A DNA stretch of 64,000 nt from NCBI GenBank assembly GCA_964599885.1, contig CAZRHH010000004.1, positions 9,082 through 73,081 of the forward strand, in the 5' to 3' direction. Positions within the stretch are counted from its first letter, which is position 1, and every line of letters starts with the position of its first letter. This DNA is from an uncultured Dehalococcoidia bacterium (GTDB lineage: Bacteria > Chloroflexota > Dehalococcoidia > DSTF01 > JACRBR01). Below, in pieces: positions 5,394 to 62,811 of this stretch. A program made the position numbers and the translations under genes. The notes beneath the pieces were generated by a model. The model saw nothing but the letters and a program-made list of their open reading frames with translations, made no database searches and had not been told where the DNA came from.

Positions 5394-5481
5394 CGCGGCA
5401 CCCGGCGCGATCACGCGGACACAAGACAAGGGCGCCCGCTCAGGCGCCCCTGCTAATTCTGGTCTGGTTCTGCGCGGCTCC

Positions 5482-8025
5482 CTAGAAGCCCTGGTTCACC
5501 TCAACAAAGCGGCCGAGTGGGTTCGGCGAGAAGGCCCAGATGTGGACCAGCCAGCCGGCCTTGTCGATCCACACCGGGTTTCCCGGGCGGGACATGCACG
5601 TCGCCTGTGGCACCAGCTCTTGTACCGACTGGAAGTTGTTCCACAGACACAGCGACTCGTGGTAGTGCCAGGCGTCCTCGTTGCCGGCGAAGCCGTCCGG
5701 CGGCAGCGGGACGATATCGATCGGCATGATGTACATCAAGCCGCCGAGCTTCCAACCGCCAGGGCGGCTCGCATCAGGCTCGTACAGCAGACTCTCCGGC
5801 TGACCCGGGATGAACACATCGTCCTGGCCGGCGACCGAGCCCCTCACGAGGTGCCGGCCCTGTCCCGGAATGTAGGGCGTCGTCTGGACGAATCCAGCCG
5901 CGAACGCGGCGTTGATGTTGTTGTACTGCTCGGTGCCGACAATCGCCTCGCGAATCTGCCGGTCGACCAGCGGGCAACTCGGTGTCTGTCCCTGCGCCGT
6001 GCCCCAGAGGTCAACGACGTTAATCACGCCGTTCGCATTCCAGTCCTTGAGCCTGGTGTACCCGGGCTGGCCGAAACGCTTGTCCATCTGCGTTGCGATC
6101 TGCTGCAGGTCGGCGACGTCGACGCTGCCGTTTCCGGTCACATCGAAGCAGAAGTACGGCTTCGGGTTCTCGGCAAACTGGGTAACGATAACGCGCACGC
6201 TGTCGGTGTCGATGTTACCGTCGTTGTCCGTGACGGTGAGCGTCACAAAGTGCTCCCCAAGCGTGAACTGCTTCGAGTCGACCGGGTTCGCCGAGAGGAC
6301 CGTGGTGCCCTCCTTCCACTCGTACGTCGCGATGAAGCCGTCCGGATCCTGAGAGTTGCGGCCGTCCAGCGTCACGTGCGAGTGGTCGTTATGCGCGATC
6401 GGGCCGCTCCAGTCCTCACCCGCATCCGCAGTTGGTGGCAGCACGCCGCCGCCGGCGCTGTAGTTGTAGCCCGCCGTCAGCGTCGCGCTTCCCACGCTGT
6501 TCGTGACCGTCACATCGACGAGTTCGGCGGCGTGCGCCGGGGTGACACCGGTGAGCGTGTTGGAGTTCTGCACACTAATGTTCGTCAACGACACGCCGTC
6601 GAGCGTCACCGTCGTCTCGGATGTCGTCGTGAAGTTCGTGCCCGAGACCGTGACCGTCTGCCCGCCGTCCACCGATCCACCTGCCGGCGAAATGCCGGTC
6701 ACAGTGATCCCGCTGACCGGAGTTTCATCCGGCTTGAAGAACGTAATCTTGTTGCCGCCGTACTCGGCGACGTAGATGGTGCCGTCCGGGCCGATGGCGA
6801 CGTCGAGCGCGTTCGGCAGGTTGGACGCCAGCGTGGTGTCCGAGACCACCGAGAGGCCGTCGGCCGAGAGCTGCACGCGATGCAGCGTGCTGTCTACCCA
6901 CGACACGTACAACAGGTCGCCCTGGAGCTGTCCGCCGAAGATGCCTGACTTGTACGCGGCAATGCCGTCCGACGATGGCGGCAGCAGCGCGATCGGCGCC
7001 CGGTAGTTGCCCGAACTGGGCTCCGTACCGGCCTTGTAGTCGCACTGCAGCGGGTCGTTCAGGTTGATCCCGCGATTGCGGTTTGGATGCCCGTAGTAGC
7101 GATCCTCTTCGATGATGTTCAGCTCATCCGCCGCCTGCGCGTCGATGCCGTCGTTGGTAAAACACCCCACCGATCCCGGGCCGTACCCGGCGTTCGGGCC
7201 GTTGTCCGTGTTGTAGAAGATCCCATTCTCGGAATGGAACAGCAGGTCGTACGGGTTACGCAATCCGCTCGCGTACACGTCCACGTCGCCGCCTGTTTGC
7301 GCGACCGCGGTACCGTACGTGCTCGCCGGCGAGTACGTGATGTTCCCGTTGAATCCAGAAGCGTTGACATCGGCTACGAGGATCGCGCCGCCGGTCGGCA
7401 CTTCTTCACGCTGGAACAAGCCGCCGTTCGGGTTGATCACGCCGGCGTTCGTCGTACCGCCCTGCGCGACGTACAGCCGGCCGTCTGGCCCGAACGTCAG
7501 ACCGTTGGCCTCGTGCCCGGAGTTCGCGACGGGCAACCCCGTGATGATGTCCGTGCGCGTGCCGTAGGCGGGTCCGTCGATTCGCGTCACCTTGCCCGGA
7601 AACGAACCGGCGGGCGCCTGCCCCGCATCTCCGAAGCCGGACACCGTGTTCGTCACATAGATTGTCGGCGGGCTCGATCCATCAGCGGGGTCGAACGCGA
7701 TGCCGAACACTTCCTGAAGCTGCGCGTTCGTCGTCACCTGCTGCACCGCTGTGACGGCTTTCGTGCCGGGATTCAGCGTCAGTGCCTGGATGCGGCCGTT
7801 CACGTCGGCGACGTAGAGGCGGCCATCCGGACCGACCTCCAGCGAACCAGGCTGCAACGTGGCGAACCCGGAACCGGCAATCGTGCCGCGGATGAAATTG
7901 ATCGGCTGAACGCCGTGCGCGACATCGGCCTTGCCGATCGAGAGCATCGCCGCAACCGCGAATACCAGCGCTGCGACGAACCACCACGTCGGGAAAGCCC
8001 AGGATCGATGCACGCCTGCCTCCAT
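5482..8025 (-). CDS. large secreted multidomain protein: N-terminal signal/anchor, soluble-quinoprotein-glucose-dehydrogenase-like beta-propeller, IPT/TIG, PKD, dockerin-like Ca-binding repeats, C-terminal domain of unknown function
   Basis: 847-aa ORF. Hydrophobic N-terminus; repeated GPDGRLYVA propeller blades; ISPAGGSVDGGQTVTVSGTNF (IPT); TLTVTDNDGN (PKD); DVTGNGSVDVADL and DWNANGVINVVDL (dockerin EF-hand-like pair). Confidence 0.75.
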   Translation of the reverse strand: MEAGVHRSWAFPTWWFVAALVFAVAAMLSIGKADVAHGVQPINFIRGTIAGSGFATLQPGSLEVGPDGRLYVADVNGRIQALTLNPGTKAVTAVQQVTTNAQLQEVFGIAFDPADGSSPPTIYVTNTVSGFGDAGQAPAGSFPGKVTRIDGPAYGTRTDIITGLPVANSGHEANGLTFGPDGRLYVAQGGTTNAGVINPNGGLFQREEVPTGGAILVADVNASGFNGNITYSPASTYGTAVAQTGGDVDVYASGLRNPYDLLFHSENGIFYNTDNGPNAGYGPGSVGCFTNDGIDAQAADELNIIEEDRYYGHPNRNRGINLNDPLQCDYKAGTEPSSGNYRAPIALLPPSSDGIAAYKSGIFGGQLQGDLLYVSWVDSTLHRVQLSADGLSVVSDTTLASNLPNALDVAIGPDGTIYVAEYGGNKITFFKPDETPVSGITVTGISPAGGSVDGGQTVTVSGTNFTTTSETTVTLDGVSLTNISVQNSNTLTGVTPAHAAELVDVTVTNSVGSATLTAGYNYSAGGGVLPPTADAGEDWSGPIAHNDHSHVTLDGRNSQDPDGFIATYEWKEGTTVLSANPVDSKQFTLGEHFVTLTVTDNDGNIDTDSVRVIVTQFAENPKPYFCFDVTGNGSVDVADLQQIATQMDKRFGQPGYTRLKDWNANGVINVVDLWGTAQGQTPSCPLVDRQIREAIVGTEQYNNINAAFAAGFVQTTPYIPGQGRHLVRGSVAGQDDVFIPGQPESLLYEPDASRPGGWKLGGLMYIMPIDIVPLPPDGFAGNEDAWHYHESLCLWNNFQSVQELVPQATCMSRPGNPVWIDKAGWLVHIWAFSPNPLGRFVEVNQGF

Positions 8026-16730: not shown

Positions 16731-17393
16731 ATGGCCCTCTACCCGATCTTCATCGAAGCAGGCGGCAGACCAGTACTCGTCATCGGCGGCGGCAACGTTG
16801 GCGCCGAGAAGGTGCGCGGCCTGCTCAACGCCGAAGCCGACATCACCGTCGTCAGTCCCGATCTCATCCCCGAACTCCAGGAGTACAAGGACGCCTGCCG
16901 CATCAAGCACGTCGCGCGTCCGTACGTCGAGTCCGACCTCGATGGCGGCTGGGAGTGGATCATGGTGGCGACCGACGACGGCGCCGTGAACGCTGAGGTC
17001 GCCGCCGCCGGCAAACGCCGCCGCATCTGGGTGAACGCCGCCGACGATCCCGTCAACTGCGATTTCATCCTCCCCTCCGTGGTCCGGAAAGGGAAGATCA
17101 CGCTCGCCGCATCGACATCGGGCACCAGCCCCGCCCTCGCCCGCCGCCTGCGCGAAGAACTCGACGCGTATCTCACCGAAGACATGCCCGCGCTCGCCGA
17201 CCTCCTCGCCGAAGTCCGCCAGGAAATCCGCAGGCGCGGCATCAAGGTCGAGAACGACACGTGGCAGCAAGCGATCGACGTGCAGCTGCGCGTGATGCTC
17301 GCGCAGCGCCGGTACGACGAAGCGCGCGCGCACCTCATCCGCGGCCTCGGCATTGACTTGCCGCCGCTCGGCGTCCCCGAAAGCGTGGGTTGA
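16731..17393 (+). CDS. precorrin-2 dehydrogenase / sirohydrochlorin ferrochelatase (SirC / CysG N-terminal-domain-like)
   Basis: VLVIGGGNVGAEKVRGLL NAD-binding motif, 220 aa, first gene of the haem operon. Confidence 0.8.
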   Translation: MALYPIFIEAGGRPVLVIGGGNVGAEKVRGLLNAEADITVVSPDLIPELQEYKDACRIKHVARPYVESDLDGGWEWIMVATDDGAVNAEVAAAGKRRRIWVNAADDPVNCDFILPSVVRKGKITLAASTSGTSPALARRLREELDAYLTEDMPALADLLAEVRQEIRRRGIKVENDTWQQAIDVQLRVMLAQRRYDEARAHLIRGLGIDLPPLGVPESVG

Positions 17394-17394
17394 G

Positions 17395-18681
17395 GTGCAG
17401 ATCTCACTCGTCGGCATTTCGCACAAGACAGCACCCGTCGCCGTGCGCGAACACTATGCCTTCACGCCAGACGAGCTGCCCGAACTGCTGACGCAGCTCG
17501 GCGAACGCTACGGCGGCGCCGCCGTCCTATCGACATGCAACCGCACGGAGATCTACATCGCCAGCGCGCGTGGTATCGCCGACCCGCGCCCCATCGTCGC
17601 GCTGATCAGCGAGATCAAGAGCGAGGCGCCGATGGAAGGAGCGCCGTTTTTTGCGCTGCCCTCGAAAGAAGCCGCTCGCCATCTCTTCCGCGTCGCTGCC
17701 GGCGTCGAATCGATGGTCATCGGCGAGTCGGAGATCCTCGGCCAGGTGCGTGGCGCCTTCACGGCGGCGACGGCCGCCGGCACGCACACGCCCGCGCTCT
17801 CGCGGCTCTTCCACACCGCCATCCGCGTCGGCCGAAAGGTGCGTACCCAGACGGGCATCGGCCGCCATTCGGTCTCCGTCAGTTCGACCGCGGTGCAGCT
17901 CGCGCGCCGCACGCCCGGCGACGTCAGCGACAAGACGGTCCTCGTCATCGGCGCCGGTGAGGCGGGGCAACTCACCGCCGGCAACCTCAACGGCGTCGGC
18001 GTCGGGCGCATGCTCGTCACCAGCCGCAACCCCGAACGCACGGCTGATCTCGCCCACGCGCTCGGCGGCAGCGCGGTCGCCTACGAACGCCGCGCTGCTG
18101 CGATTGCGGAGGCGGACATCGTCATCTCATCGACCGCCGCGCAGGACTTTGTGATCGACCGCGCGATGGTGCAGGAAGCGATGGCCACGCGCGCGGGCCG
18201 CCCGCTGCTGCTGATCGATATCGCCGTGCCGCGCGATATCGACCCGACAGCCGGCGCGCTTCCCGGCGTCACGCTCTACGACATCGATGCGCTGCAGACC
18301 GTCGTCGAGCAGAACATGCAGTTGCGCCGCGCGGAACTGAGCGCGGCCGAAGTCATCGTCGAAGAAGGCGTGACGAAATTCGGCGAGTGGCTCCGTTCGC
18401 TCGAAGTCGTGCCGACCGTCGCGTCGCTGCGCGCCCGCGCCGAAAGCGTGCGGCTCGCCGAACTCGAGCGCACGCTCTCGAAAACAACGATGAGCGCCAC
18501 CGACCGCAAGCGCGTCGAAGCAATGACCTCGGCGCTCGTGAAGAAACTGCTCCACAGCCCGATCGCCCGCCTCAAGACCCCCGGCGAAGGCGACCGCTAC
18601 ATCGAAGCGGCGCGCGCGCTGTTCGATCTCGACGGCGAGCCGCCGGCCATCGATCCGGCGACGGATGCGCCCGACGCATGA
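17395..18681 (+). CDS. hemA: glutamyl-tRNA reductase
   Basis: In-frame GTG start 1 nt after the previous stop. SLVGISHKTAPVAVRE, CNRTEIY and NAD-binding GAGE motifs. Confidence 0.9.
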   Translation: MQISLVGISHKTAPVAVREHYAFTPDELPELLTQLGERYGGAAVLSTCNRTEIYIASARGIADPRPIVALISEIKSEAPMEGAPFFALPSKEAARHLFRVAAGVESMVIGESEILGQVRGAFTAATAAGTHTPALSRLFHTAIRVGRKVRTQTGIGRHSVSVSSTAVQLARRTPGDVSDKTVLVIGAGEAGQLTAGNLNGVGVGRMLVTSRNPERTADLAHALGGSAVAYERRAAAIAEADIVISSTAAQDFVIDRAMVQEAMATRAGRPLLLIDIAVPRDIDPTAGALPGVTLYDIDALQTVVEQNMQLRRAELSAAEVIVEEGVTKFGEWLRSLEVVPTVASLRARAESVRLAELERTLSKTTMSATDRKRVEAMTSALVKKLLHSPIARLKTPGEGDRYIEAARALFDLDGEPPAIDPATDAPDA

Positions 18682-19610
18682 CGCGCACGTTCGTCATCGG
18701 CACCCGCGGCAGCCGGTTGGCGCTGCGTCAGGAGGAGTTGGTGCAGGACGCGCTCCGTGCCGCCGGCGTCGAAGCCGCGATCGAAGTCCGAGAGATCAAG
18801 ACCGAAGGTGACGTGTCCGCGGCGCCGCTCAGCTTGATCGGCGGGCTCGGCGTGTTCACGAAAGCGATCGAGGACGCGCTGCTCGCCGGTACGATCGACA
18901 TCGCCGTCCACAGTCTGAAAGATCTCCCTCCCGCGCTCACACCGGGCCTGATGCTCGCCGCGATCCCGGCGCGCGGCGACGCTCGCGACGCGCTCGTCAC
19001 CACCGATGGACGCCCGCTCTCGGAATTGAAGCAGGGTGCCCGTATCGGCACCGGCAGCGAGCGCCGCGCGACGCAGCTCAACGCGCTCCGCCCCGACATC
19101 GTCGCCGAAGACATCCGTGGCAACGTCGACACGCGCGTCCGCAAGGTCGAGTCGGGCGAGTACGACGGCGCCGTGCTGGCGATGGCGGGGCTGCTGCGCC
19201 TGGGGCTGGAGCTGAAAGCCGCGCACGTGTTCTCGCCCGACGAGATGCTGCCCGCCGTCGGCCAGGGCGCGCTCGGCGTCGAAGTGCGCGCAGACGATGC
19301 GGAAGCGCTCGCGCTGCTGCGTCCGATCGACGATCACGACACGCACGTCGCCGTCACCGCGGAGCGCGCGTTTCTCGCCCGTCTCGGCGCTGGCTGCCGT
19401 ATGCCGGTCGCCGGATTCGCCGCCGCCCGCGACGGCGTGATCACGATGCGCGCCCGCATTGCGACCGGCACGCCGCCGCAGATGATCGATCTCGCCGCCG
19501 CCGCCGAGACCCCTAACGCCATCGCATTAGGCGAACAACTCGCCGACGAAATGATGTCGCGCGCGGGGCTAGAGGTTGGAGGTAGAGGTTGGACAGGCGG
19601 CGTTCGGTGA
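18678..19610 (+). CDS. hemC: hydroxymethylbilane synthase (porphobilinogen deaminase)
   Basis: ATG overlaps the hemA stop (ATGA). FVIGTRGSRLALRQ and a dipyrromethane cofactor region. Confidence 0.9.
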   Translation: MTRTFVIGTRGSRLALRQEELVQDALRAAGVEAAIEVREIKTEGDVSAAPLSLIGGLGVFTKAIEDALLAGTIDIAVHSLKDLPPALTPGLMLAAIPARGDARDALVTTDGRPLSELKQGARIGTGSERRATQLNALRPDIVAEDIRGNVDTRVRKVESGEYDGAVLAMAGLLRLGLELKAAHVFSPDEMLPAVGQGALGVEVRADDAEALALLRPIDDHDTHVAVTAERAFLARLGAGCRMPVAGFAAARDGVITMRARIATGTPPQMIDLAAAAETPNAIALGEQLADEMMSRAGLEVGGRGWTGGVR

Positions 19611-19620
19611 GTTGGCGGTG

Positions 19621-19649
19621 GTTTGGAGCGGGCGGAGCTAAAGCTCCGC
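19621..19649 (+). repeat. palindromic REP-like element GGCGGAGCTAAAGCTCCGCAGCTACGTCC
   Basis: Contains a perfect hairpin, CGGAGCT-aa-AGCTCCG. A near-identical copy lies at 52765-52793. Both are immediately 3' of plus-strand genes. Confidence 0.7.
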
Positions 19650-19677
19650 AGCTACGTCCACTGATTCGGATCACCTT

Positions 19678-21204
19678 GTGAGCACCAAGCGCGGCTTCGT
19701 CTCGCTCGTCGGAGCTGGGCCTGGTGATCTGCAACTAATCACCGTCGGCGGCGCGGCGCGGCTCGCCGAGGCCGACGTCGTCGTCTACGACCGGCTGGCC
19801 AATCCGGCGCTGCTCTCGCACGCGCGCACGGACGCCGAGCTGATCTACGTTGGGAAGATGCCCGACCGCCACACGTTGTCGCAGGACGAGATCAACGCGC
19901 TGCTCGTCGAGCGCGGACTCGCCGGCCAGCGCGTCGTGCGCCTCAAGGGCGGCGACCCGTTCGTCTTTGGTCGCGGCGGCGAAGAGGCGGAAGCGCTGAT
20001 CGCCGCCGGTGTCGCGTTCGAGGTGCTGCCCGGCGTCACGTCGGCGATCGCGGCTGCGGCGTACGCCGGCGTGCCGGTGACGCACCGCGCGCTGGCATCG
20101 TCCTTCGCGGTCATCACCGGTCACGAAGATCCCGCCAAGGACGACACCAGCATCAACTGGGAGAAGCTCGCGACCGGCGTCGATACGCTCGTCTTCCTGA
20201 TGGGCGTCGGCCGGCTCGAAGAGATCGCGCGGCGCCTCATCGCGCACGGCCGCGCCACCACGACGCCCGTCGCCGTCGTCGAATGGGCCACGCTGCCGCG
20301 GCAGCGCACCGTGACTGGCACGCTCGATACGATCGCCGGCGTCGTTGCCGAGAGCGGCATCGGTGCGCCCGCCGTCACCATCGTCGGAGAGGTCGCCGCC
20401 CTGCGGGCCGGCCTGCGCTGGTTCGATACGCGCCCGCTGTTCGGCAAGCGCGTACTTGTCACGCGCACGCGTCAGCAGGCGAGCGATCTCTCTCGCCTGC
20501 TTGCCGCACAGGGCGCCGAGCCCGTCGAGCTGCCGACGATCGAGATCGTGCCGCGCGTCGATGCGGCAACGCTGTCACGATCGATCGCGCTGCTGCGGAG
20601 CTCCGGCTATGGCTGGTGCATCTTTACCAGCGCCAACGCCGTCGACATCTTCATCGCGCATCTGCGCGATGCACAGCTCGATGTGCGGGCATTCACACGC
20701 ACGCAGATCGCCGCGATCGGCCCGGGCACGGCCGAATCGCTCGCTGCTCACGGCCTGCGCGCAGATGTCGTCCCCGAGCGGTATGTCGCTGAAGGGCTGA
20801 TCGGCGCGCTCGCGCAGCGTGTTGTCCGCGGCCAGCGCGTGCTGCTGCTACGCGCCGAGGATGCTCGGAAAACGATCGTTGACGCGCTGACGCAGCGAGG
20901 CGCGACAATCGATGAGCTGACGCTGTACACGGCCGCCGTGCCGCAGCAGCGTGATGCCGAGGCGCTCCGCCGTCTTCGCGCCGGCGAGATCGACATCGCG
21001 ACGTTCGCCAGCTCGTCGTCCGTCCGCAATCTCATCGAGATGCTCGATGGCGACATCACGCCGTTGCGCAACGTCAAGATCGCCGCGATCGGCCCCGTGA
21101 CCGCAGAAGCCGTCCGCGCTGCCGGCCTGGAACTGGCGATCATGCCGGACACGTACACGATCGAGGCGCTGGTCGATGCGCTGGTGCATGACGCCGCGGG
21201 ATAG
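19678..21204 (+). CDS. uroporphyrinogen-III C-methyltransferase fused to uroporphyrinogen-III synthase (CobA/HemD)
   Basis: GTG start. N-terminal VGAGPGD...GGDPFVFGRGGEE (SUMT); C-terminal HemD-like half. Confidence 0.85.
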   Translation: MSTKRGFVSLVGAGPGDLQLITVGGAARLAEADVVVYDRLANPALLSHARTDAELIYVGKMPDRHTLSQDEINALLVERGLAGQRVVRLKGGDPFVFGRGGEEAEALIAAGVAFEVLPGVTSAIAAAAYAGVPVTHRALASSFAVITGHEDPAKDDTSINWEKLATGVDTLVFLMGVGRLEEIARRLIAHGRATTTPVAVVEWATLPRQRTVTGTLDTIAGVVAESGIGAPAVTIVGEVAALRAGLRWFDTRPLFGKRVLVTRTRQQASDLSRLLAAQGAEPVELPTIEIVPRVDAATLSRSIALLRSSGYGWCIFTSANAVDIFIAHLRDAQLDVRAFTRTQIAAIGPGTAESLAAHGLRADVVPERYVAEGLIGALAQRVVRGQRVLLLRAEDARKTIVDALTQRGATIDELTLYTAAVPQQRDAEALRRLRAGEIDIATFASSSSVRNLIEMLDGDITPLRNVKIAAIGPVTAEAVRAAGLELAIMPDTYTIEALVDALVHDAAG

Positions 21205-21293
21205 GGATCCGGCTGGCGTAGCGGTTCAAGACCCGTCGGCGCGCCAGTCGCGGACCCGAATGGGGGGACGGGCCCAGCCGGTAGAATGAACGT

Positions 21294-22286
21294 ATGCTAG
21301 ACCTCAACACCCGGGGCGATTTCGCCCGCAACCGCCGCCTCCGCCGCTCCGAGGGCCTGCGCCGCCTCGTCGCCGAAACGCGCCTGTCGCCGTCGGACTT
21401 CGTCTACCCGTTGTTCGTCACGCACGGCACCGGAGTCCGCGAACCGATCGTCTCGATGCCGGGCCAGTACCGGCTGTCGCTGGATCAGATCCGCGCCGAG
21501 GCGAAGGAACTGCGCGACGTCGGCGTCAACGCTGTTCTTCTGTTCGGGCTGCCGGCGTCGAAGGACGAGCAGGGCACAGAAGCGTTCAGCGACGCCGGCA
21601 TCGCGCAGGACGCCGTGCGCGCGTTCAAGGATGCCTCGCCAGATCTCGTCGTGATCACCGACGTCTGCATGTGTGAATACACGAGCCACGGCCATTGCGG
21701 CATCATCAGCGACGATGGCGAGGTCGATAACGACCGCTCGATCGAACTGATCGCCAAGACGGCCGTTTCGCACGCACGCGCCGGCGCCGACATGGTCGCG
21801 CCGTCCGACATGATGGACGGGCGCGTCGCCGCCATTCGCGAGGAGCTGGACGACAACGACTACACGCAGACACCGATCATGGCGTACAGCGCGAAGTACG
21901 CGTCGGCGTTCTACGGCCCGTTCCGCGAAGCCGCCGACAGCGCGCCGCAGTTCGGCGACCGCCGCGGCTACCAGATGGATCCGCCCAACGCCCGCGAAGC
22001 GCTCCGCGAGATCCAGGATGACCTCGACGAGGGCGCGGACATCGTCATCGTGAAGCCCGCGCTTCCGTACCTCGACATCGTCTCGCGCGCCCGCGACGCG
22101 TTCGACGTGCCGCTCGCCGCGTACAACGTCAGCGGCGAGTACGCCATGGTTAAGGCGGCTGCCGCCAATGGCTGGATCGACGAACAGCGGACGATCCTCG
22201 AGACGCTGACATCGATAAAACGGGCTGGCGCTGACATCATCATCACGTATCACGCCAAAGAGGCCGCGCGTTGGCTGCAAGCGTGA
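21294..22286 (+). CDS. hemB: porphobilinogen synthase (delta-aminolevulinate dehydratase)
   Basis: 330 aa with active-site lysine-region motifs ([22 protein letters not shown]). Confidence 0.9.
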
Positions 22287-31997: not shown

Positions 31998-32465
31998 CTA
32001 TTCGGGCGCCGAGCGCCACACGGATCGCGCGCCGCCGGGAACCAGCGACGATAGTTCGATCCGCCACGGCGTCAGCTTGAGCAGGCCGAAGTCGGCGCCG
32101 TCCGGCCCATCCTTCCAGATCAGCGCCGGATCGTACCCGAGCGGCGGCGGCGTGGACTTGTACAACTCCCAGATGCGCCGCTTCTCCGATGCGTCGTCCT
32201 CCCACCCAGCGAGACAGTCAACGTAGACCTGCTCGTGCTTCGGATCCCAGTACGAGAGCGAGATGTACGGATTCGCCGCGAGGTGCTTGCTCTTGTGCGA
32301 CTGACGGCCGGTGGCGATGTAGCCGGTGCTGCCTTCCCAGATCGGATGGAGGATACGGGTGCGCGGCCGGCCACGACGGTCGACCGTTGCGGCAGTACAC
32401 CAGGCGATGCGCCGGATGCGCGCCATGAACTCGTCCTCGATCTCTGCGAACGATGCGGTTTCCAT
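31998..32465 (-). CDS. pyridoxamine 5'-phosphate oxidase family protein (PPOX/F420-type flavin-binding split barrel)
   Basis: Start at METASFAEI; the rest of the 208-aa track ORF is an N-terminal extension. Split-barrel FMN-binding-like sequence. Confidence 0.65.
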   Translation of the reverse strand: METASFAEIEDEFMARIRRIAWCTAATVDRRGRPRTRILHPIWEGSTGYIATGRQSHKSKHLAANPYISLSYWDPKHEQVYVDCLAGWEDDASEKRRIWELYKSTPPPLGYDPALIWKDGPDGADFGLLKLTPWRIELSSLVPGGARSVWRSAPE

Positions 32466-32518
32466 TCGGCTCCTTCCGCCCCTTCTGATTGTGAGTGCTG
32501 CGCGACTGGAGTCGATTG

Positions 32519-33133
32519 CTAGCGATCGAGCACTTCGCGTGATTCGTCGCGCGCGATGTCGTTGGCGGGCAGCACATCGTCGACCCAGCCGCCGGCCTTC
32601 CAGCCGGGGACGGGCGTCTCGCACTCGCTCTTCGGTACAAAGCGCGATCTCTGGACGAGCTTCAGCTTGTGGATGTAGCGCGGACAGTTCGGGAAGATCT
32701 CGCGCGCCTTCACGCGGACGATGAACTGCGCCTCCGGATACTCGGCCATCAGCGGATCCGCCGGATCGATCGACGCCTCGCCGTTGAGGCGCATCCGGAA
32801 CTGCTCCTCGAAATCGATGAACAGGATGCCCACCTGGCCGGTCTGCAGCACGTTGCCCATCGAGAGGTACATGCCGTTGCCGTCGAAGTTCGGGAAGGCG
32901 ATCGTCCGCTCGTCGACGACGCGCACGAAGCCGGGCTCACCGCCCTTGTACGAGCAGTTGGCATGTCCGTTCTCGTCGACCGTGGCAATAAAGAACATGT
33001 CCATGCGCTCGATAAACGCCCGGTCGCTGTCGCCGATGACGTCGTGCGTTAGTTCGCCGACGCGATCGGCCAGTTTGCGCGTGTCGAACTGATCCTGAAG
33101 CTGCCTGCTCGTTTCGGAGAACATGTCAGTCAT
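32519..33133 (-). CDS. PPOX-related FMN-binding protein (general-stress-protein-26-like)
   Basis: 204 aa with a split-barrel motif (FFIATVDENGHANCSYKGGEPGFVRV). Confidence 0.7.
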   Translation of the reverse strand: MTDMFSETSRQLQDQFDTRKLADRVGELTHDVIGDSDRAFIERMDMFFIATVDENGHANCSYKGGEPGFVRVVDERTIAFPNFDGNGMYLSMGNVLQTGQVGILFIDFEEQFRMRLNGEASIDPADPLMAEYPEAQFIVRVKAREIFPNCPRYIHKLKLVQRSRFVPKSECETPVPGWKAGGWVDDVLPANDIARDESREVLDR

Positions 33134-56460: not shown

Positions 56461-58482
56461 CTAGCGCGCGCTGATCGCTTCCGCCACGTCGGCGAGGCCG
56501 AGCGATTCCAGTTTGCGCTTGCTTGGTGCGGCGGTCTCGGGATCCCAGTCGCAGGCGGCGAGGTAGTCCTGCTCGAGCGTTCTGGTGTCGAGCGAGATGT
56601 CCTTATGCGGGCCGGCTTCGAGCGGCGTGGCGCCCCAGATGCGGCCGGGGATGCGGCGCCTGGTGACGATGTCGCCTTCACGAATGTTGAACGCCATGCG
56701 CATGTTGGCGATGCGTTCGCCAACTTCCTTCATCTCGTCGAGCGACGTGTCCCAGCCGGTCGTGTGGTTGATCCACTCCGGGATGCGGTCGTTCGGCGCA
56801 CCCATCATGATGAACATGCACATGCCGGCGGAGTTGACGACGTGCATGTACTCCGATTTGCCCTTGTGGTGCTCGCCGCGCTCCGTCGCCTGCGTGCGGT
56901 CCTGTGGCGCCGGCGTCAGATTCCAGGCCGGCCGCGTGGCGCCCTCGTACTGGGTGTGACGCGCGGGCGTCGGGTCGAGCTTGTACGTCGTGAAGAACTC
57001 CGGCTGGAGCTTCGGGTCGTGCATCGGTAGCTCCTCGCCCCCGACTTCCATCGCGAACTCGATCGACTTCGGGCCGATCTTCGCGGACGCGGCTTTCACG
57101 CCGTCGCCGAAGAGTTCGCCGAGAGCGCCCTCCTTCGTGCCGATCTTGTGGAGCGCTTCCATGATCGCTTCGGTGTTGCCCCAGCGCAGGTCGATGCCGT
57201 CGGTGTCTTCCTTGGTGATCAGGCCGTTCTCGAAGCACTCCATCGCGAAGGCGATCGTGCCGCCGGCGGCGATCGTGTCGACACCGTACTGGTTGCAGAG
57301 GTGATTCGCGTACTGCAGCGAGTTGATGTCATTGCTGAGCATCATCGTGCCGAATGCGGTCGTCGTCTCGTACTCGGCGCGGTGCGTGTGGTGCGGGTAC
57401 GGGAAACGCGCGTCGTTCTTGATCTCGGCGTCGGTCTTGCTGTCGTTCTCGAGCTTCTTGATCTTCGCTTCGATGCCCTGCTTCTCGTCGTCAGCGGCCG
57501 AAGCGAGCATCGTGCGCAGCTCGTTCGCTTCGCCTTCGCGCTTGGAGATGCGGAGCTTTGCCTGGTTCTCCTGCTCGTCCCACGCGTAGGACTCGCCGCC
57601 ACAGGCGATGGGGCAGTGCCAGCAGGCGTACTTCTTGTCCATCTTGCGGTTGAAGTTGTCGCCGGACATCACCATGCCCTGCGGGAAATCGACCATGCCG
57701 ACGCCGCCCCAGTTCTTCACGGGCGCGTCGCCCGACATCGCCGACGAGTTGGTGATGCCGGTGGTGCCGTAGGTGCGGAAGAAGTTGGTGATCGGCTTCG
57801 CGAACTGGTCGAGCGACGAGCGGACGAGCTTCATCGCTTCCGGGCTGGAACCGATGATGTTCTTCGATGCGTTGACGACGATCGCCTTAACGTTCTTCGA
57901 GCCCATGACGGCGCCGAGGCCGCTGCGTGCGGCGAGACGGCCGCGCTCGTTGCAGATGCCGGCCATCAGCGAGAGTTTCTCGCCGGCGGGGCCGATGCAA
58001 GCGACGGAGGCCTTCTTGCCGTGGCGCTCCTTGAGCTTCATCTCGACATCGATCGCGAGCATGCCCCAGATGTCGGAGGCGTCCTTGATCTCGACCTTGT
58101 CGTCGTCGATGTGAATGTAGACGGGCTTCGACGACTTCTCGTACAGCATGATGCCGTCCCAGCCCGCGTTCTTGAGGAATGGGCCGAAGTCACCGCCGGC
58201 GTTCGCGTCGCCCCAGCCGCCGGTCTTCGGCGACTTGCCGACGGCCTGGTAGCGGATGCCGAAGAACGGCGTACCAGTCAGCAGCCCGGGAAACAGGCCG
58301 AGGATGTTGTCGGGGCCGAGCGGGTCGGCGCCGGCAGGGATGCGGTCGAAGAGCAGGCGGGAACCGATACCATAGCCACCGAGGTACTTGCGGTACATCT
58401 CCTCGGGGATCTGCTCGACTTCGGTCGTGCCGACGTTCAGCCGGACGTTCAGCATTTTTCCGTTGATGGCTCCATTGAGCAT
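56461..58482 (-). CDS. aldehyde:ferredoxin oxidoreductase family (tungstopterin-type AOR)
   Basis: Start MLNGAINGK preceded by GGAAGGAG. AOR N-terminal domain and tungstopterin-binding domains; a Glu/Lys-rich insert. Confidence 0.8.
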   Translation of the reverse strand: MLNGAINGKMLNVRLNVGTTEVEQIPEEMYRKYLGGYGIGSRLLFDRIPAGADPLGPDNILGLFPGLLTGTPFFGIRYQAVGKSPKTGGWGDANAGGDFGPFLKNAGWDGIMLYEKSSKPVYIHIDDDKVEIKDASDIWGMLAIDVEMKLKERHGKKASVACIGPAGEKLSLMAGICNERGRLAARSGLGAVMGSKNVKAIVVNASKNIIGSSPEAMKLVRSSLDQFAKPITNFFRTYGTTGITNSSAMSGDAPVKNWGGVGMVDFPQGMVMSGDNFNRKMDKKYACWHCPIACGGESYAWDEQENQAKLRISKREGEANELRTMLASAADDEKQGIEAKIKKLENDSKTDAEIKNDARFPYPHHTHRAEYETTTAFGTMMLSNDINSLQYANHLCNQYGVDTIAAGGTIAFAMECFENGLITKEDTDGIDLRWGNTEAIMEALHKIGTKEGALGELFGDGVKAASAKIGPKSIEFAMEVGGEELPMHDPKLQPEFFTTYKLDPTPARHTQYEGATRPAWNLTPAPQDRTQATERGEHHKGKSEYMHVVNSAGMCMFIMMGAPNDRIPEWINHTTGWDTSLDEMKEVGERIANMRMAFNIREGDIVTRRRIPGRIWGATPLEAGPHKDISLDTRTLEQDYLAACDWDPETAAPSKRKLESLGLADVAEAISAR

Positions 58483-58754
58483 GGACGAAGCTCCTTCCGC
58501 GTGTGTGGAGATGTGACGCTGCGCGTATCTGCGGGTATCGCTGTAGATGATGCTGGCCGCCTGAGTCTGAATCAAGCGGCGAGCGTGGCACAGTATAGAG
58601 TAGCCCGCCGTTACGCGCGTTATGTCGGTGCAGGCATGACGGGTGGTGTCGGGATGGGCGGCTGGTGTCTGGTGTTTGGTGGCTGGGAGCACCCATTCTG
58701 GCAGATCTATTGTTTGGCAGTTTTCCGTTTTTCGCAGTTCGAGGTTGTGTAGCC

Positions 58755-59082: not shown

Positions 59083-59877
59083 TCACCGAGTGCCTTTCAC
59101 TGCCCACGCGCGAGCGATGAGCGGGATCGAGCCGTCACTCGCGATTGGCAGTCTTTCCCGAATCAGGTCACGCAATCTGTGCCGTTGCGGGTCGTTCAAG
59201 GACATCGCGTATCGTGGCGCGGGCGCCTGTCCGCCGAGAAACGGTGACCAGTAGTCGTCGAAATCGGGGAAGACTGTCGGGACATCGATGGCGCGTGTTT
59301 CGACGCGCTGAAGTCCGCAGCCCGAGAAGAGTTCTCGCAGCGCATCGGCCTGACAAATGGAGAAGCGGCGGCCTTCGTCAAGCTCTTTCGATGCGGGATC
59401 CAGGTCTGCGGCAGCGTCCCAGAAGTACCGCATCATCTGCATCTCACCCGCGTAGTCCCAAACGTACGCGGCGACGATTCCAGTGGTTCGTGTGACGCGC
59501 ACGCACTCGGCAATTCCCGCGACCGGGTCCGGTACAAAGTTGAGTGAGAGTCCGGAGACGACGAAATCTGCGCTGCGATCCTCGAATGGCAGACCTTGTG
59601 CGTGGCCGATCGTGAACGTGATCCGATCGTCGCCGAAACGGTCCTTTGCGAAGGCGATGAAGCCATCGGATGGATCGACGCCCCGAATGGATCGCGGCGT
59701 GGCCGATGCGAGGATGGCGGCGCTCAGCTCACCTGTGCCGCAGCCGACGTCAACCCAGACTTTGGCAGGTGCGGGATCGAGCCATCGAACGAAGTCGGGC
59801 GCGACGAGGCGGCTCCATCTGCCGACGTAGGGTTCGTACGCCTCGCCGGCTGCCCATAGGTTGTCGTGCTGGCTCAT
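59083..59877 (-). CDS. class I SAM-dependent methyltransferase
   Basis: VWVDVGCGTGELS motif I; 264 aa. Confidence 0.8.
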   Translation of the reverse strand: MSQHDNLWAAGEAYEPYVGRWSRLVAPDFVRWLDPAPAKVWVDVGCGTGELSAAILASATPRSIRGVDPSDGFIAFAKDRFGDDRITFTIGHAQGLPFEDRSADFVVSGLSLNFVPDPVAGIAECVRVTRTTGIVAAYVWDYAGEMQMMRYFWDAAADLDPASKELDEGRRFSICQADALRELFSGCGLQRVETRAIDVPTVFPDFDDYWSPFLGGQAPAPRYAMSLNDPQRHRLRDLIRERLPIASDGSIPLIARAWAVKGTR

Positions 59878-60177: not shown

Positions 60178-60912
60178 ATGCCAACCGCTATCGGCCGGAA
60201 CGAAGCTCAACGTCTCATTAGCGAGGAGCGAGCTCAGCTCGTAGAGGTGTTACCCGAATCGGAATTCGAGGAGAGCCACATTGAAGGAGCCCGCAACATT
60301 CCCTTGAAGCGCCTGGATCGCGACAGGGTCGGCGAGTTAAACGCTGCCTCGCCCATCATCGTGTATTGTCACGACTGCCTTTGAGACATGAGCGCACGGG
60401 CCGCGTGGCGGCTCGAAACTCTTGGCTTCAACCGGGTCTACCGTTACACGGCTGGTAAGTCCGACTGGTCCGGCAGCGGCCTGCCGATGGAAGGCAAAGC
60501 CGAAGGCCAACCCACCGCCGGCAGCATCATTCGTCGCGGTGTGCCGACATGCAGGTTGGATGAGCGTTTCGGAGAGGTTCGCGCCAGAGTACGTGCAGCT
60601 GGCTGGGACTCCTGTGTGGTGGTGGGTAGCGAAGGCGTAGTGCTCGGACGGCTCCGCAACGAGGTGCTTGAGGGATCCTCAGAAGTTGCAGTTGATAGTG
60701 TTATGGAGTCCGGCCCGACGACCATCCGGCCCGACGTCTCGCTTCAATCGATCGTCGCCCGCCTTCGCCGAAAGAACGTGGAACAAGTCCTCGTGACGAC
60801 GCCCGATGGTGAGCTGCTCGGCGTACTCTTTCGAGAAGACGCGGAGCGACAGGTGACGAGCGCAGATGCCGCCCCACATGATGACGAAGACGCATGCGAG
60901 TGTGGCGTATAG
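60178..60912 (+). CDS. rhodanese-domain plus CBS-pair protein interrupted by one in-frame TGA (60382-60384): candidate selenoprotein or nonsense pseudogene
   Basis: Track ORFs 60178-60384 and 60388-60912 are in the same frame, separated only by a TGA and a GAC. Together they read ...IIVYCHDCL-TGA-DMSARAAWRLETLGF... (rhodanese active-site loop), followed by a CBS pair. Confidence 0.5.
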
Positions 60913-60952: not shown

Positions 60953-62317
60953 TTACGTCAGGATCCCCGGCGGGGAATCCATCCACGCCTCGGCGCCTAG
61001 TGTGATGAGGTAGCCGGCAAACAACAACAACCCCGTGATCAGGTGGACCTGCACGTTTTTGCCCATCGACGCCATCAGCGTGTACGGGTCGCCGTAGTGG
61101 GCGCGGATGCCGCGGTACACGCTGAGCGCCATCGGCGCGGCGATCAGGGCGATCAGCGTCGGCCGCGGCAGCACGCCCGTCGCGCCGCCGATCGCCACGA
61201 CGGCGAAGGCGAGGATCGCTGCGACGAGGAAGCCGTTGGTGACGACTTCGGGCGAGAGGCGCGTCGGCAGCGTGCGCTTGCCGGCGAGGGCGTCGCTGTT
61301 GCGGTCGGGGATCTCGTTCACGTAGAGGATGAGCGCGATGAGGATGGCGACCGGGATCGATGCGACGAACGCTTCGCCGGACAGCGCCTCGCGCTGGACG
61401 ACGTAGGCGCCGAGCACCATGAGTGGGCCGAAGCCGATCGCCGTCGTGATCTCGCCGAGGCCGCGGTAGACGAGCTTGAACGGCGGCGCCGTGTAGAAGA
61501 CGCTGAGCAGCACGCCCGCGACGCCGATCGCCAGCAGCTCCCACGACGGACGCAGCGCGAGCAGCAGCAGCCCGACGGCGATGCCGACGGCGTAGGCGCC
61601 GATCGACACAGCGCCCATCTGCCGCAGCGTCACGAGGCCGCGCTGGATGACGCGTGAGCCGCCGCTGTACTGCGTCGGGTTGACGTTCGCTTCATCGGCG
61701 CCGGAGAGCGCGTCGAAGACGTCGTTCGCGGTGTTGAGGCCGATGTGGATCGCGCAACCGCCGAGCATCGTCAGGATCGCGAGCCACCAGTTGAAGCCGC
61801 CGTCGCGTGCGGCGACGGCGAGTCCGAGTAGAATCGGCACGATCGTCGCCGTCAGAAACGGCAGGCGAGTCGAGAGCAGTACGGTCCAGACGCGCGAGAG
61901 TCGCGGCTTGACGATGCGGCCCTGCTCTTCGGAAATCTGCGCGAGGTATGTGCGGGCCTGCTCGTTCGAGCGCTCGGAGTACTCGAAGAACGGCATCTCC
62001 TTCTCGTCCCAGCCCCAGGCGCGGGCGGGGCGGAAGATCGTCGCGCCGCTGTCATGACGTTCGGCGCGGCCGTGCATCGTCACGTAGCGGCGCTCGTCGT
62101 AGCCGGTGCCGGGCTGCGGACGGATGTGGCTGCCGATGACGTTGACGTCGCGGTCGGCGGGCACGGGCATGCCGGTGGGCGCGATGCGCACGACGCCGTC
62201 GGCGGCGTCGGACTCGAACGACGCGGGGATCTGCATCGGATAGCCGTCGTCATCGATCCACGTGAGCACGATGTGCGGGTACGTGCTGAGCTTCGTCAGC
62301 GCGACATCGATGTTCAT
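60953..62317 (-). CDS. PPOX-like flavin-binding domain fused to UbiA-family prenyltransferase (MenA-like)
   Basis: N-terminal ~140-aa split-barrel-like region, then eight TM helices with the aromatic prenyltransferase motif (NTANDVFDALSGAD, NDxxDxxxD). Confidence 0.7.
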   Translation of the reverse strand: MNIDVALTKLSTYPHIVLTWIDDDGYPMQIPASFESDAADGVVRIAPTGMPVPADRDVNVIGSHIRPQPGTGYDERRYVTMHGRAERHDSGATIFRPARAWGWDEKEMPFFEYSERSNEQARTYLAQISEEQGRIVKPRLSRVWTVLLSTRLPFLTATIVPILLGLAVAARDGGFNWWLAILTMLGGCAIHIGLNTANDVFDALSGADEANVNPTQYSGGSRVIQRGLVTLRQMGAVSIGAYAVGIAVGLLLLALRPSWELLAIGVAGVLLSVFYTAPPFKLVYRGLGEITTAIGFGPLMVLGAYVVQREALSGEAFVASIPVAILIALILYVNEIPDRNSDALAGKRTLPTRLSPEVVTNGFLVAAILAFAVVAIGGATGVLPRPTLIALIAAPMALSVYRGIRAHYGDPYTLMASMGKNVQVHLITGLLLFAGYLITLGAEAWMDSPPGILT

Positions 62318-62811
62318 GATGCGGCCCCGATCGCGGTGACGCCGGGCGCTTCAGCGACGTGCGGCGCGGGCGACGTATCGGCATCGTCCCACCAGAAGAT
62401 GCGGCGCGGCGTGATCTCGACGAGCGAGCGCTCGAAGAAGAGCGGAAGCGCGAAGCGCGCGCCGAGGAACTTGTCGATCGCCGGCTCCTTCGCGCGCCAG
62501 AGCGGCAGCACGCGCTCCCACGTCTCGTGCGGGTCTTCCTCGAAGATGACGGCGTCGCCCTGGATCGTGCAGCGCGCGGCGAGGCCGCCGGTCGCTGTTG
62601 GGTCGGTGATGGCGACGCTGACGCGCTTGTCGCGCTTGATGTGCTCGAGCTTCTTCGAGAAGAGGATGCTTGATGTGATGTAGATGCGCTCGCCGTCCCA
62701 GAGCGGGATCAGCGGATGCACCTGCGCCTCCCCGCGCTTGCCGACAACGGCGACCTCGGCCACAAGCGCGCGGTCGAGGAGGTCGTTGACGGCCTTCGGG
62801 ATCCAGTTCAC
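62314..62811 (-). CDS. PPOX-family (F420/FMN-binding split-barrel) protein
   Basis: 165 aa; its stop overlaps the start of the downstream fusion gene (ATGA). Confidence 0.65.
   Translation of the reverse strand: MNWIPKAVNDLLDRALVAEVAVVGKRGEAQVHPLIPLWDGERIYITSSILFSKKLEHIKRDKRVSVAITDPTATGGLAARCTIQGDAVIFEEDPHETWERVLPLWRAKEPAIDKFLGARFALPLFFERSLVEITPRRIFWWDDADTSPAPHVAEAPGVTAIGAAS

Follow-up and report, generated by a model that had tools for sequence, protein, structure and literature searches.

A MenA-type prenyltransferase with a cryptic split-barrel domain and a conserved split-barrel partner: a candidate redox-coupled module of menaquinone-type quinone synthesis

To our knowledge, prenyltransferases of the UbiA superfamily normally work in the membrane as stand-alone enzymes; among them is the 1,4-dihydroxy-2-naphthoate (DHNA) polyprenyltransferase MenA, which adds the lipid tail of menaquinone (vitamin K2). 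All steps of bacterial menaquinone synthesis are regarded as assigned. Split-barrel proteins of the PNPOx/FDOR type are obligate dimers that hold the cofactor at the dimer interface. Split-barrel FDORs are found in Actinobacteria and Chloroflexi and reduce menaquinone; one of them, MSMEG_3380 (structure 3F7E, subgroup FDOR-B1), shows strong quinone reduction in vitro (PMC8498797). Demethylphylloquinone needs to be reduced by NdbB/NDC1 before the MenG step (PMC5299476). The subject of this report is an association of the split barrel with a MenA-type prenyltransferase, of which no account, either as PNPOx/split-barrel-UbiA or -MenA association or as fusion, was found in full-text literature searches. 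It is encoded at positions 60953-62811, on the minus strand, of a 64,000-nucleotide (nt) stretch (hereafter, the window) of a contig from an uncultured Dehalococcoidia bacterium. Two overlapping genes make up the module: one for a protein of 165 amino acids (aa), named p165, and one for a 454-aa protein in which a cryptic N-terminal domain (N-domain) precedes the prenyltransferase. The enzyme classes are known; the architecture and the obligatory partnership appear to be new. We propose, with a probability of roughly 0.45, that the two genes form a conserved module serving the prenylation step of menaquinone-type quinone synthesis, in which a split-barrel redox unit is docked to a MenA-type enzyme.

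Both open reading frames (ORFs) of the original prediction were recovered with the same ends, and the start of the longer gene can be seen in the letters to share an ATGA with the stop of p165 (Table 1). The p165 gene begins with a GTG codon that has a GGAG sequence 8 nt upstream. The assignment of a UbiA domain to the 454-aa protein also held, residues 159-401 matching the Pfam model PF01040 with 108.6 bits against a cut-off of 34.2. All NCBIfam matches of the protein (residues ~147-438) are to DHNA polyprenyltransferase models, and no UbiA/4-hydroxybenzoate (4-HB)-type model appears among the NCBIfam results for the window protein and its relatives. The NDVFDALSGAD motif on which the original prediction relied is present at residues 198-208 and constitutes the first of two Asp-rich motifs; a Mg2+/diphosphate-binding role of this motif is established in the UbiA superfamily (PMC4106721). 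In an alignment of 40 homologues, residues N198, D199, D202 and D208 of the first motif and N334, E335, I336, P337, D338 and D342 of the second are invariant. The number of transmembrane (TM) helices had to be changed from eight to nine, as given by both the predicted model and the hydropathy profile. Lys and Arg residues gather in the linker that follows the N-domain and in the TM2-3, TM4-5 and TM6-7 loops, with nearly none in the others; therefore, the N-domain should be cytoplasmic and lie on the same face as both Asp-rich motifs. A profile score over the cut-off, two Asp-rich motifs in cytoplasmic loops and an all-helical fold of 8-9 TM helices place the protein in the UbiA superfamily, and we consider a MenA-type role in quinone synthesis probable. 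PTQ[YF]SGGSR and LYVNEIPD are signature peptides of the subfamily, and the latter was specific enough for the retrieval of 462 species genomes. Three longer relatives (P0170, P0174 and P0192; 527-586 aa) carry Ala/Pro-rich N-terminal extensions and retain the N-domain, while the Asp-rich motifs of their prenyltransferase domain are degenerate; they may be catalytically inactive paralogues.

The first ~140 residues of the 454-aa protein had been read as a split barrel. At the level of sequence this reading failed: the N-domain gives no Pfam match even at E<=10, alone or within the whole protein, and none in NCBIfam, and its best PDB profile match (2i02, E 0.44) is not significant. At the level of fold it was borne out. 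AlphaFold2, run on the N-domain alone with 38 diverse sequences, produced a model with a mean predicted local distance difference test (pLDDT) score of 93.2, in which a helix (residues 3-10) is followed by seven antiparallel strands (16-104) and two further helices (110-132). The failure of split-barrel profiles, which had been named beforehand as grounds for giving up the claim, is formally there in the sequence, but it is overturned by the modelled fold: in the predicted structure, the N-domain is a split beta-barrel. Structural matches of the model include the GluTR-binding protein (5che/4n7r), Pden_1323, HutZ, At3g03890 (6m0a) and 9bl1, and among the matches the flavin- and F420-binding structures outscore the haem-binding ones.

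Across the alignment of 40 homologues, the N-domain matches the catalytic core in conservation. Conservation peaks in a hairpin in which S63, H64, R66, G72, Y73, D74, R76, R77 and Y78 are invariant in the 40 close homologues; in the set of 38 diverse members, G72 and R76 remain invariant, with I65 and P67 conserved to 90% or more. Further motifs are RAWGWDE (99-105) and PFFEYSERSN (109-118), and P138, L140 and W144 are conserved in the basic linker. An exhaustive HMMER search of 1.84 billion cluster representatives, for which residues 1-144 served as query, returned only 145 clusters. In every full-length cluster the UbiA domain directly follows the N-domain, and no ordinary PNPOx protein was retrieved; therefore, the N-domain is a small family dedicated to this prenyltransferase. 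Having neither a Pfam nor an NCBIfam model, it defines a new sequence family that current annotation misses entirely.

Assignment of p165 to the PPOX family, also part of the original prediction, is upheld by the narrowest of margins on PF01243 (PNPOx_N; 28.2 against 28.1 bits) and goes no further, as the model of the F420-dependent PPOX class, TIGR03618, scores 35 bits with a cut-off of 79.05. Orthologues of p165 bear precomputed PF01243 and PF12900 labels, and the nearest solved structure is 3f7e (MSMEG_3380; E 1.2e-4). Residues 46-66 of p165 (T46-S-S-I-L-F-S52-K-K54-L-E-H-I-K-R-D-K-R-V-S-V) align to THTTK-RQKYRNIKANPAVA of 3f7e and correspond to a helix motif that, from the PdxH and FDOR structures, we take to be the segment binding the cofactor phosphate. 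Among 28 orthologues T46, S47, F51, S52 and K54 are invariant, as is H95 elsewhere in the protein, which is kept in the archaeal orthologues as well. The motif (T-x4-[SR]-K-x3-[IL]-x2-N-x-x-V) is not present in the N-domain, where residues 46-56 (PTGMPVPADRD) form a coil in the model and are four residues shorter than the p165 motif in the hhalign comparison; the conserved charged residues of the N-domain (R76, D104, E105 and E115) lie away from this segment. With the motif kept in p165 and lost in the N-domain, p165 is the half equipped to hold a cofactor, if one is present. Three elements of the original prediction need revision as a result of these comparisons. The term "redox flavin domain" is unproven for the fused part, which has lost the canonical flavin/deazaflavin phosphate-binding motif that p165 retains; "paralogue" is not demonstrable for the N-domain and p165, since hhalign of the two families gives a probability of 1.6%; and in place of a self-contained bifunctional enzyme, the relevant unit is a two-protein module.

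The coupling of the two genes was evaluated across genomes. A search of 5.8 billion proteins yielded full-length homologues of ~450 aa with 61-75% identity, hundreds of them metagenomic and from independent sources. The few that have names are called "prenyltransferase [Dehalococcoidia bacterium]" or "DHNA octaprenyltransferase"; on the N-terminal part, Pfam matches are absent from all of them. When one genome per GTDB species was scanned, 462 species proved to encode a relative of the prenyltransferase; the best 80 of these matches, on which the locus counts and the taxonomic picture given here rest, are all metagenome-assembled genomes (MAGs) from Chloroflexota (Dehalococcoidia, Ca. Limnocylindria) and Actinomycetota (Gaiellales/Thermoleophilia). 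The N-domain and the UbiA domain form one ORF in 80/80 loci, and in all 80 the gene immediately upstream, on the same strand, is a p165 orthologue. Stop and start codons overlap in 72 of them; the overlap measures 4 nt at 46 loci, 1 nt at 25 and 8 nt at one. Co-transcription of the two genes, as stated in the original prediction, is supported. The partnership is found in Chloroflexota and Actinomycetota of soil and sediment, where at least hundreds of uncultured species carry it; other bacteria and archaea have fusion variants. That the 454-aa frame might be an artefact, two genes wrongly merged or a chance ORF, can be given practically no weight and is in effect already refuted: the fusion is intact in every one of the 80 loci and in hundreds of metagenomic proteins, and its N-domain is conserved like the catalytic core. 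The frameshift that the original prediction had named as a possible refutation is not the explanation. What might be quoted in favour of an artefact are suspicious single ORFs joining p165, N-domain and prenyltransferase at three related loci (L059, L068 and L085, at about 5440-7360, in "MFD" MAGs). These were rejected as triple fusions and are best explained by assembly indels or frameshifts located at the gene junction or before it, given that the p165 tail is out of frame in L085 and that a normal GTGA junction is present in L068.

Lineages outside this set contain the same elements in other arrangements. In P0389 and P0411 (465-469 aa) a p165-like domain (p165 hidden Markov model [HMM], E 6e-5) is fused straight to the prenyltransferase, and in the 501-aa P0390 the fused partner is a fully canonical PNPOx_N domain (TFNSSRKAEQIRFNPRV; SRK...NPRV motif). 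Na+-NQR genes are present on the same 7.2-Mb contig as P0390. In P0257, P0386 and P0387 (590-605 aa) a PNPOx_N domain (37.7 against 28.1 bits) is inserted between N-domain and prenyltransferase; the insert of P0257 was considered as a p165-like domain and rejected, not being specifically p165-like, and is counted as a PNPOx_N fusion only. The surroundings of P0387 are archaeal, with an L32e/L19e ribosomal operon and Arf/Ras GTPases, and a p165 orthologue (HMM E 6e-36, ~29% identity) is found directly upstream of it; one is also present upstream at the P0386 locus. The neighbourhood of these two loci is Asgard-like, including Arf/Ras-type GTPases and a weak SNARE match. In all fusion variants the prenyltransferase domain matches MenA-type models only. 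Gene coupling and fusions together make it fairly likely that p165 and the N-domain form a complex.

Such a complex need not carry out redox chemistry. The split-barrel pair might bind the soluble aromatic acceptor (DHNA or similar) and pass it on to the membrane active site, or dimerise and stabilise the prenyltransferase, without any hydride transfer. Non-catalytic binders are indeed among the top structural matches of the N-domain (GluTR-binding protein 5che/4n7r, and the haem-binding Pden_1323 and At3g03890), the canonical cofactor motif is missing from this domain, and p165 is borderline for Pfam. However, a phosphate-binding helix with invariant S52 and K54 is what one expects for a phosphorylated cofactor and not for DHNA, and the domain fused in P0390 is a canonical PNPOx_N throughout. 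On balance we regard a purely non-redox function as unlikely, if the most serious of the alternatives.

Pathway context came from the Actinomycetota. At 18 loci of this phylum, genes for a Rieske protein, cytochrome b, a cytochrome b-C/c fusion, a UbiE/MenG methyltransferase, a polyprenyl-diphosphate synthase, p165 and the prenyltransferase follow one another on the same strand, with the pair in last position. The methyltransferase passes TIGR01934 (220.3 against 158.35 bits), and the best match of the synthase is HepT. The cluster is the classical trio of late menaquinone steps, set beside a quinol-oxidising complex. Its content points to menaquinone synthesis, in agreement with the menaquinone-type link suggested by the original prediction. 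In the window itself, a class I methyltransferase gene 1 kb downstream of the module (59083-59877) was considered as a further component and rejected, its position not being conserved and its resemblance to UbiE being weak (57 against 216 bits). In one Dehalococcoidia-type genome, a gene with a weak F420H2_quin_red (Ddn-like) match (L003:13795-14244) lies 4.4 kb from the module and hints that F420-type enzymes occur in these organisms.

The same clusters bear on two further interpretations. One makes the module a counterpart of MenJ in function, saturating one isoprene unit once the tail has been attached; the module's place in these clusters, between prenyl synthase and prenyltransferase, would suit it, and partly saturated menaquinones are known in related actinobacteria. 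The nearest solved relatives, nonetheless, belong to FDOR-B1 and B2, not to the AA subgroup. Relatives in FDOR-AA have been suggested to be fatty-acid saturases, but the characterised FDORs reduce activated (conjugated) systems and not isolated alkenes (PMC8498797), making a side-chain reductase very unlikely. The other interpretation sees a haem- or tetrapyrrole-binding module through which quinone synthesis would be tied to haem status or to the assembly of cytochromes. Haem-binding split barrels (Pden_1323, HutZ, At3g03890 and 9bl1) among the structural matches, the cytochrome b/c genes of the clusters and the invariant H95 of p165 speak in its favour; set against these are the lack of a match to any haem-family sequence profile, the better scores of flavin/F420-binding structures and the loss of N-domain H64 and p165 H32 in distant members. 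We rate this as the least credible of the functional alternatives, and highly improbable.

The reading we prefer, of a docked redox module, can be put in mechanistic terms. The 454-aa protein would be a MenA-type (DHNA-type) polyprenyltransferase whose cytoplasmic N-terminus is, by prediction, a diverged split barrel devoid of the canonical phosphate motif. This fused domain would serve as the membrane-tethered, non-catalytic half of an asymmetric heterodimer with p165, an arrangement proposed because split-barrel proteins form dimers and bind the cofactor between the two subunits. The heterodimer would put one flavin/deazaflavin site on the cytoplasmic face, beside the two Asp-rich catalytic loops, where the most likely chemistry would be hydride reduction of the naphthoquinone head group; oxidation-prone DHNA would be held as quinol, or the prenylated product would be reduced ahead of methylation by MenG. 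The tethered-half model agrees with the strict 1:1 coupling of the genes, with the existence of Rosetta-stone fusions, with the retention by one partner of the motif that the other has lost, and with the cytoplasmic location that both share. Head-group reduction is the most economical proposal because FDORs reduce menaquinone and because ring reduction by NdbB/NDC1 precedes the MenG step; argued by analogy in this way, it is conceivable and somewhat speculative. In its fullest form, the proposal would be that of an obligate complex in which a MenA-type enzyme has its own asymmetric split-barrel reductase (catalytic p165 plus degenerate tether) for an unassigned head-group reduction in bacterial and archaeal menaquinone synthesis, possibly with F420H2; this we advance tentatively and with some doubt.

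Several observations weigh against the preferred reading. With p165 borderline for PF01243 and well under the F420-class cut-off, its cofactor binding is putative. The linker is poorly defined in the full-length AlphaFold2 model of the 454-aa protein (pLDDT 84.4 overall, 50-75 in the linker), making the orientation of the domains uncertain. No men, mqn/futalosine or F420-biosynthesis genes are found within the 64-kb window, no conserved neighbours or men/mqn genes in the window or at four Chloroflexota loci, and no F420-biosynthesis neighbours at the Chloroflexota loci looked at. A simple 1:1 heterodimer also fails to account for the archaeal variant, with its three split-barrel units per module. 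Canonical MenA enzymes, as far as we know, work without any such partner. Finally, the window prenyltransferase stays under every NCBIfam MenA cut-off (TIGR00751, 87.8 against 102.15 bits; NF004751, the best, 157.7 against 264). This last point is shared by most relatives and, along with the lack of adjoining men genes at Chloroflexota loci and the subfamily's own signature peptides, could indicate that the enzyme prenylates something other than DHNA, possibly a ligand of the split barrel, and makes a different prenylated quinone or cofactor, at least in Chloroflexota. Such an acceptor seems quite unlikely, however, considering that MenA-type models are the only ones matched, that the orthologues L055 (106.6 bits) and P0389 (119.5 bits) pass TIGR00751, and that Actinomycetota clusters combine the pair with a MenG-type methyltransferase and a cytochrome b/Rieske complex.

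Table 1. Positions of the module, its parts and the variant arrangements (window coordinates unless a locus is named)
Feature	Position	Strand	Description
p165 gene	62314..62811	(-)	165 aa; soluble PNPOx/FDOR-B-like split barrel; conserved partner gene
Cofactor-phosphate helix motif TSSILFSKKLEHIKRDKRVSV	62614..62676	(-)	p165 residues 46-66
ATGA stop/start overlap, p165 to prenyltransferase gene	62314..62317	(-)	...GCA TCA TGA / ATG AAC...
Fusion gene	60953..62317	(-)	454 aa; cryptic split-barrel N-domain (predicted fold) and MenA-type UbiA prenyltransferase
N-domain	61913..62317	(-)	Residues 1-135; predicted PNPOx-type split beta-barrel fold, no sequence family
Most conserved hairpin SHIRPQPGTGYDERRY	62084..62131	(-)	N-domain residues 63-78; candidate interface or ligand site
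Basic linker VKPRLSRVWTVLLSTR	61865..61912	(-)	Residues 136-151, N-domain to TM1
MenA-type prenyltransferase domain and stop codon	60953..61864	(-)	Residues 152-454; nine predicted TM helices
First Asp-rich motif	61694..61726	(-)	N198-D-V-F-D202-A-L-S-G-A-D208; TM2-3 cytoplasmic loop
Second Asp-rich motif	61292..61318	(-)	N334-E-I-P-D338-R-N-S-D342; TM6-7 cytoplasmic loop
P0390	L089:8001-9506		Bacterial; without cryptic N-domain and without upstream partner gene
P0389	L090:964-2361		Bacterial; without cryptic N-domain and without upstream partner gene
Archaeal-context variant	L088:7518-9818, L092:6591-8841		p165 orthologue, then 590-605-aa protein with N-domain, canonical PNPOx_N and MenA-type prenyltransferase

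Other genes of the window were noted in passing. The two ORFs at 31998-33133 (minus strand), which the original prediction had listed as further family members, are genuine PNPOx_N genes (47.3 and 45.3 bits). The first is weakly similar to the p165 family HMM (E 3.6e-7) and the second is not; no link of this pair to the module, positional or other, was detected. At 60178-60912 (plus strand) a 68-aa rhodanese ORF and a 174-aa "CBS" ORF are one frame broken by an in-frame TGA (60382-60384), which falls inside the active-site loop of the rhodanese (IVYCHDCL, the TGA, then DMSARAAWRLETLGF). Read-through would give a complete rhodanese domain plus CBS, and rhodanese selenoprotein models match weakly, all under their cut-offs. 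An 8-bp hairpin begins 15 nt after the UGA, with a stability no better than that of shuffled sequence (z -0.9). The TGA may represent selenocysteine, a pseudogene or a sequencing error. A tetrapyrrole cluster at 16731-22286 (plus strand) comprises genes for a sirohaem-synthase-like NAD-binding protein, glutamyl-tRNA reductase, a fused uroporphyrinogen methylase/HemD and HemB. A gene of the aldehyde:ferredoxin oxidoreductase family (AFOR_N/AFOR_C) lies at 56461-58692 (minus strand), some 2 kb downstream of the module; it is 743 aa long as a naive ORF and 673 aa in the public gene call.

If the proposal is correct, the UbiA superfamily would gain in this module its first redox-coupled member, and plant and cyanobacterial NDC1/NdbB would have a counterpart in bacteria. 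The partnership points to an additional, unrecognised need when the prenyl group is attached, most plausibly that of controlling whether the naphthoquinone ring is oxidised or reduced, and it offers a testable hypothesis for genes of unknown function annotated as "general stress protein 26 / PNPOx family".

Among described systems, the prenyltransferase compares most directly with MenA/UBIAD1. Canonical MenA has neither a cytoplasmic split barrel of ~135 aa nor an obligatory small partner gene, whereas the module has both, and the window protein scores under all the curated MenA cut-offs. The fold of the FDOR-B/PNPOx-like proteins (MSMEG_3380, 3F7E, FDOR-B1; MSMEG_6526, 5JV4, FDOR-B2; Rv2074) is common to p165, by sequence, and to the N-domain, by predicted structure. 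These proteins occur in the same phyla (Actinobacteria and Chloroflexi), and members of the family reduce quinones with F420H2; the known ones are soluble homodimers, however, whereas in the module one half forms part of a membrane enzyme and no longer has the cofactor motif, and p165 falls under the F420-class cut-off. The F420H2-dependent Ddn (FDOR-A1) is likewise a split barrel and reduces menaquinone at the membrane, but it belongs to the FDOR-A subgroup, serves respiration and detoxification rather than biosynthesis, and is neither fused nor coupled to a prenyltransferase. The type II NAD(P)H dehydrogenase NdbB/NDC1, a dedicated naphthoquinone-ring reductase acting between MenA and MenG in phylloquinone synthesis, is proposed as the functional analogue; the presumed analogy extends to the step alone, as fold and cofactor arrangement are entirely different and NdbB/NDC1 has no physical link to MenA. 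For asymmetric pairs with one degenerate half, precedent is provided by the tandem split-barrel pseudo-dimers of the GluTR-binding protein (5che) and At3g03890 (6m0a). Both are among the best structural matches of the N-domain, and P0257, P0386 and P0387 are similarly tandem, with N-domain and PNPOx_N in succession; the precedents differ in being soluble proteins that bind haem or regulate tetrapyrrole synthesis, with no link to prenyl transfer.

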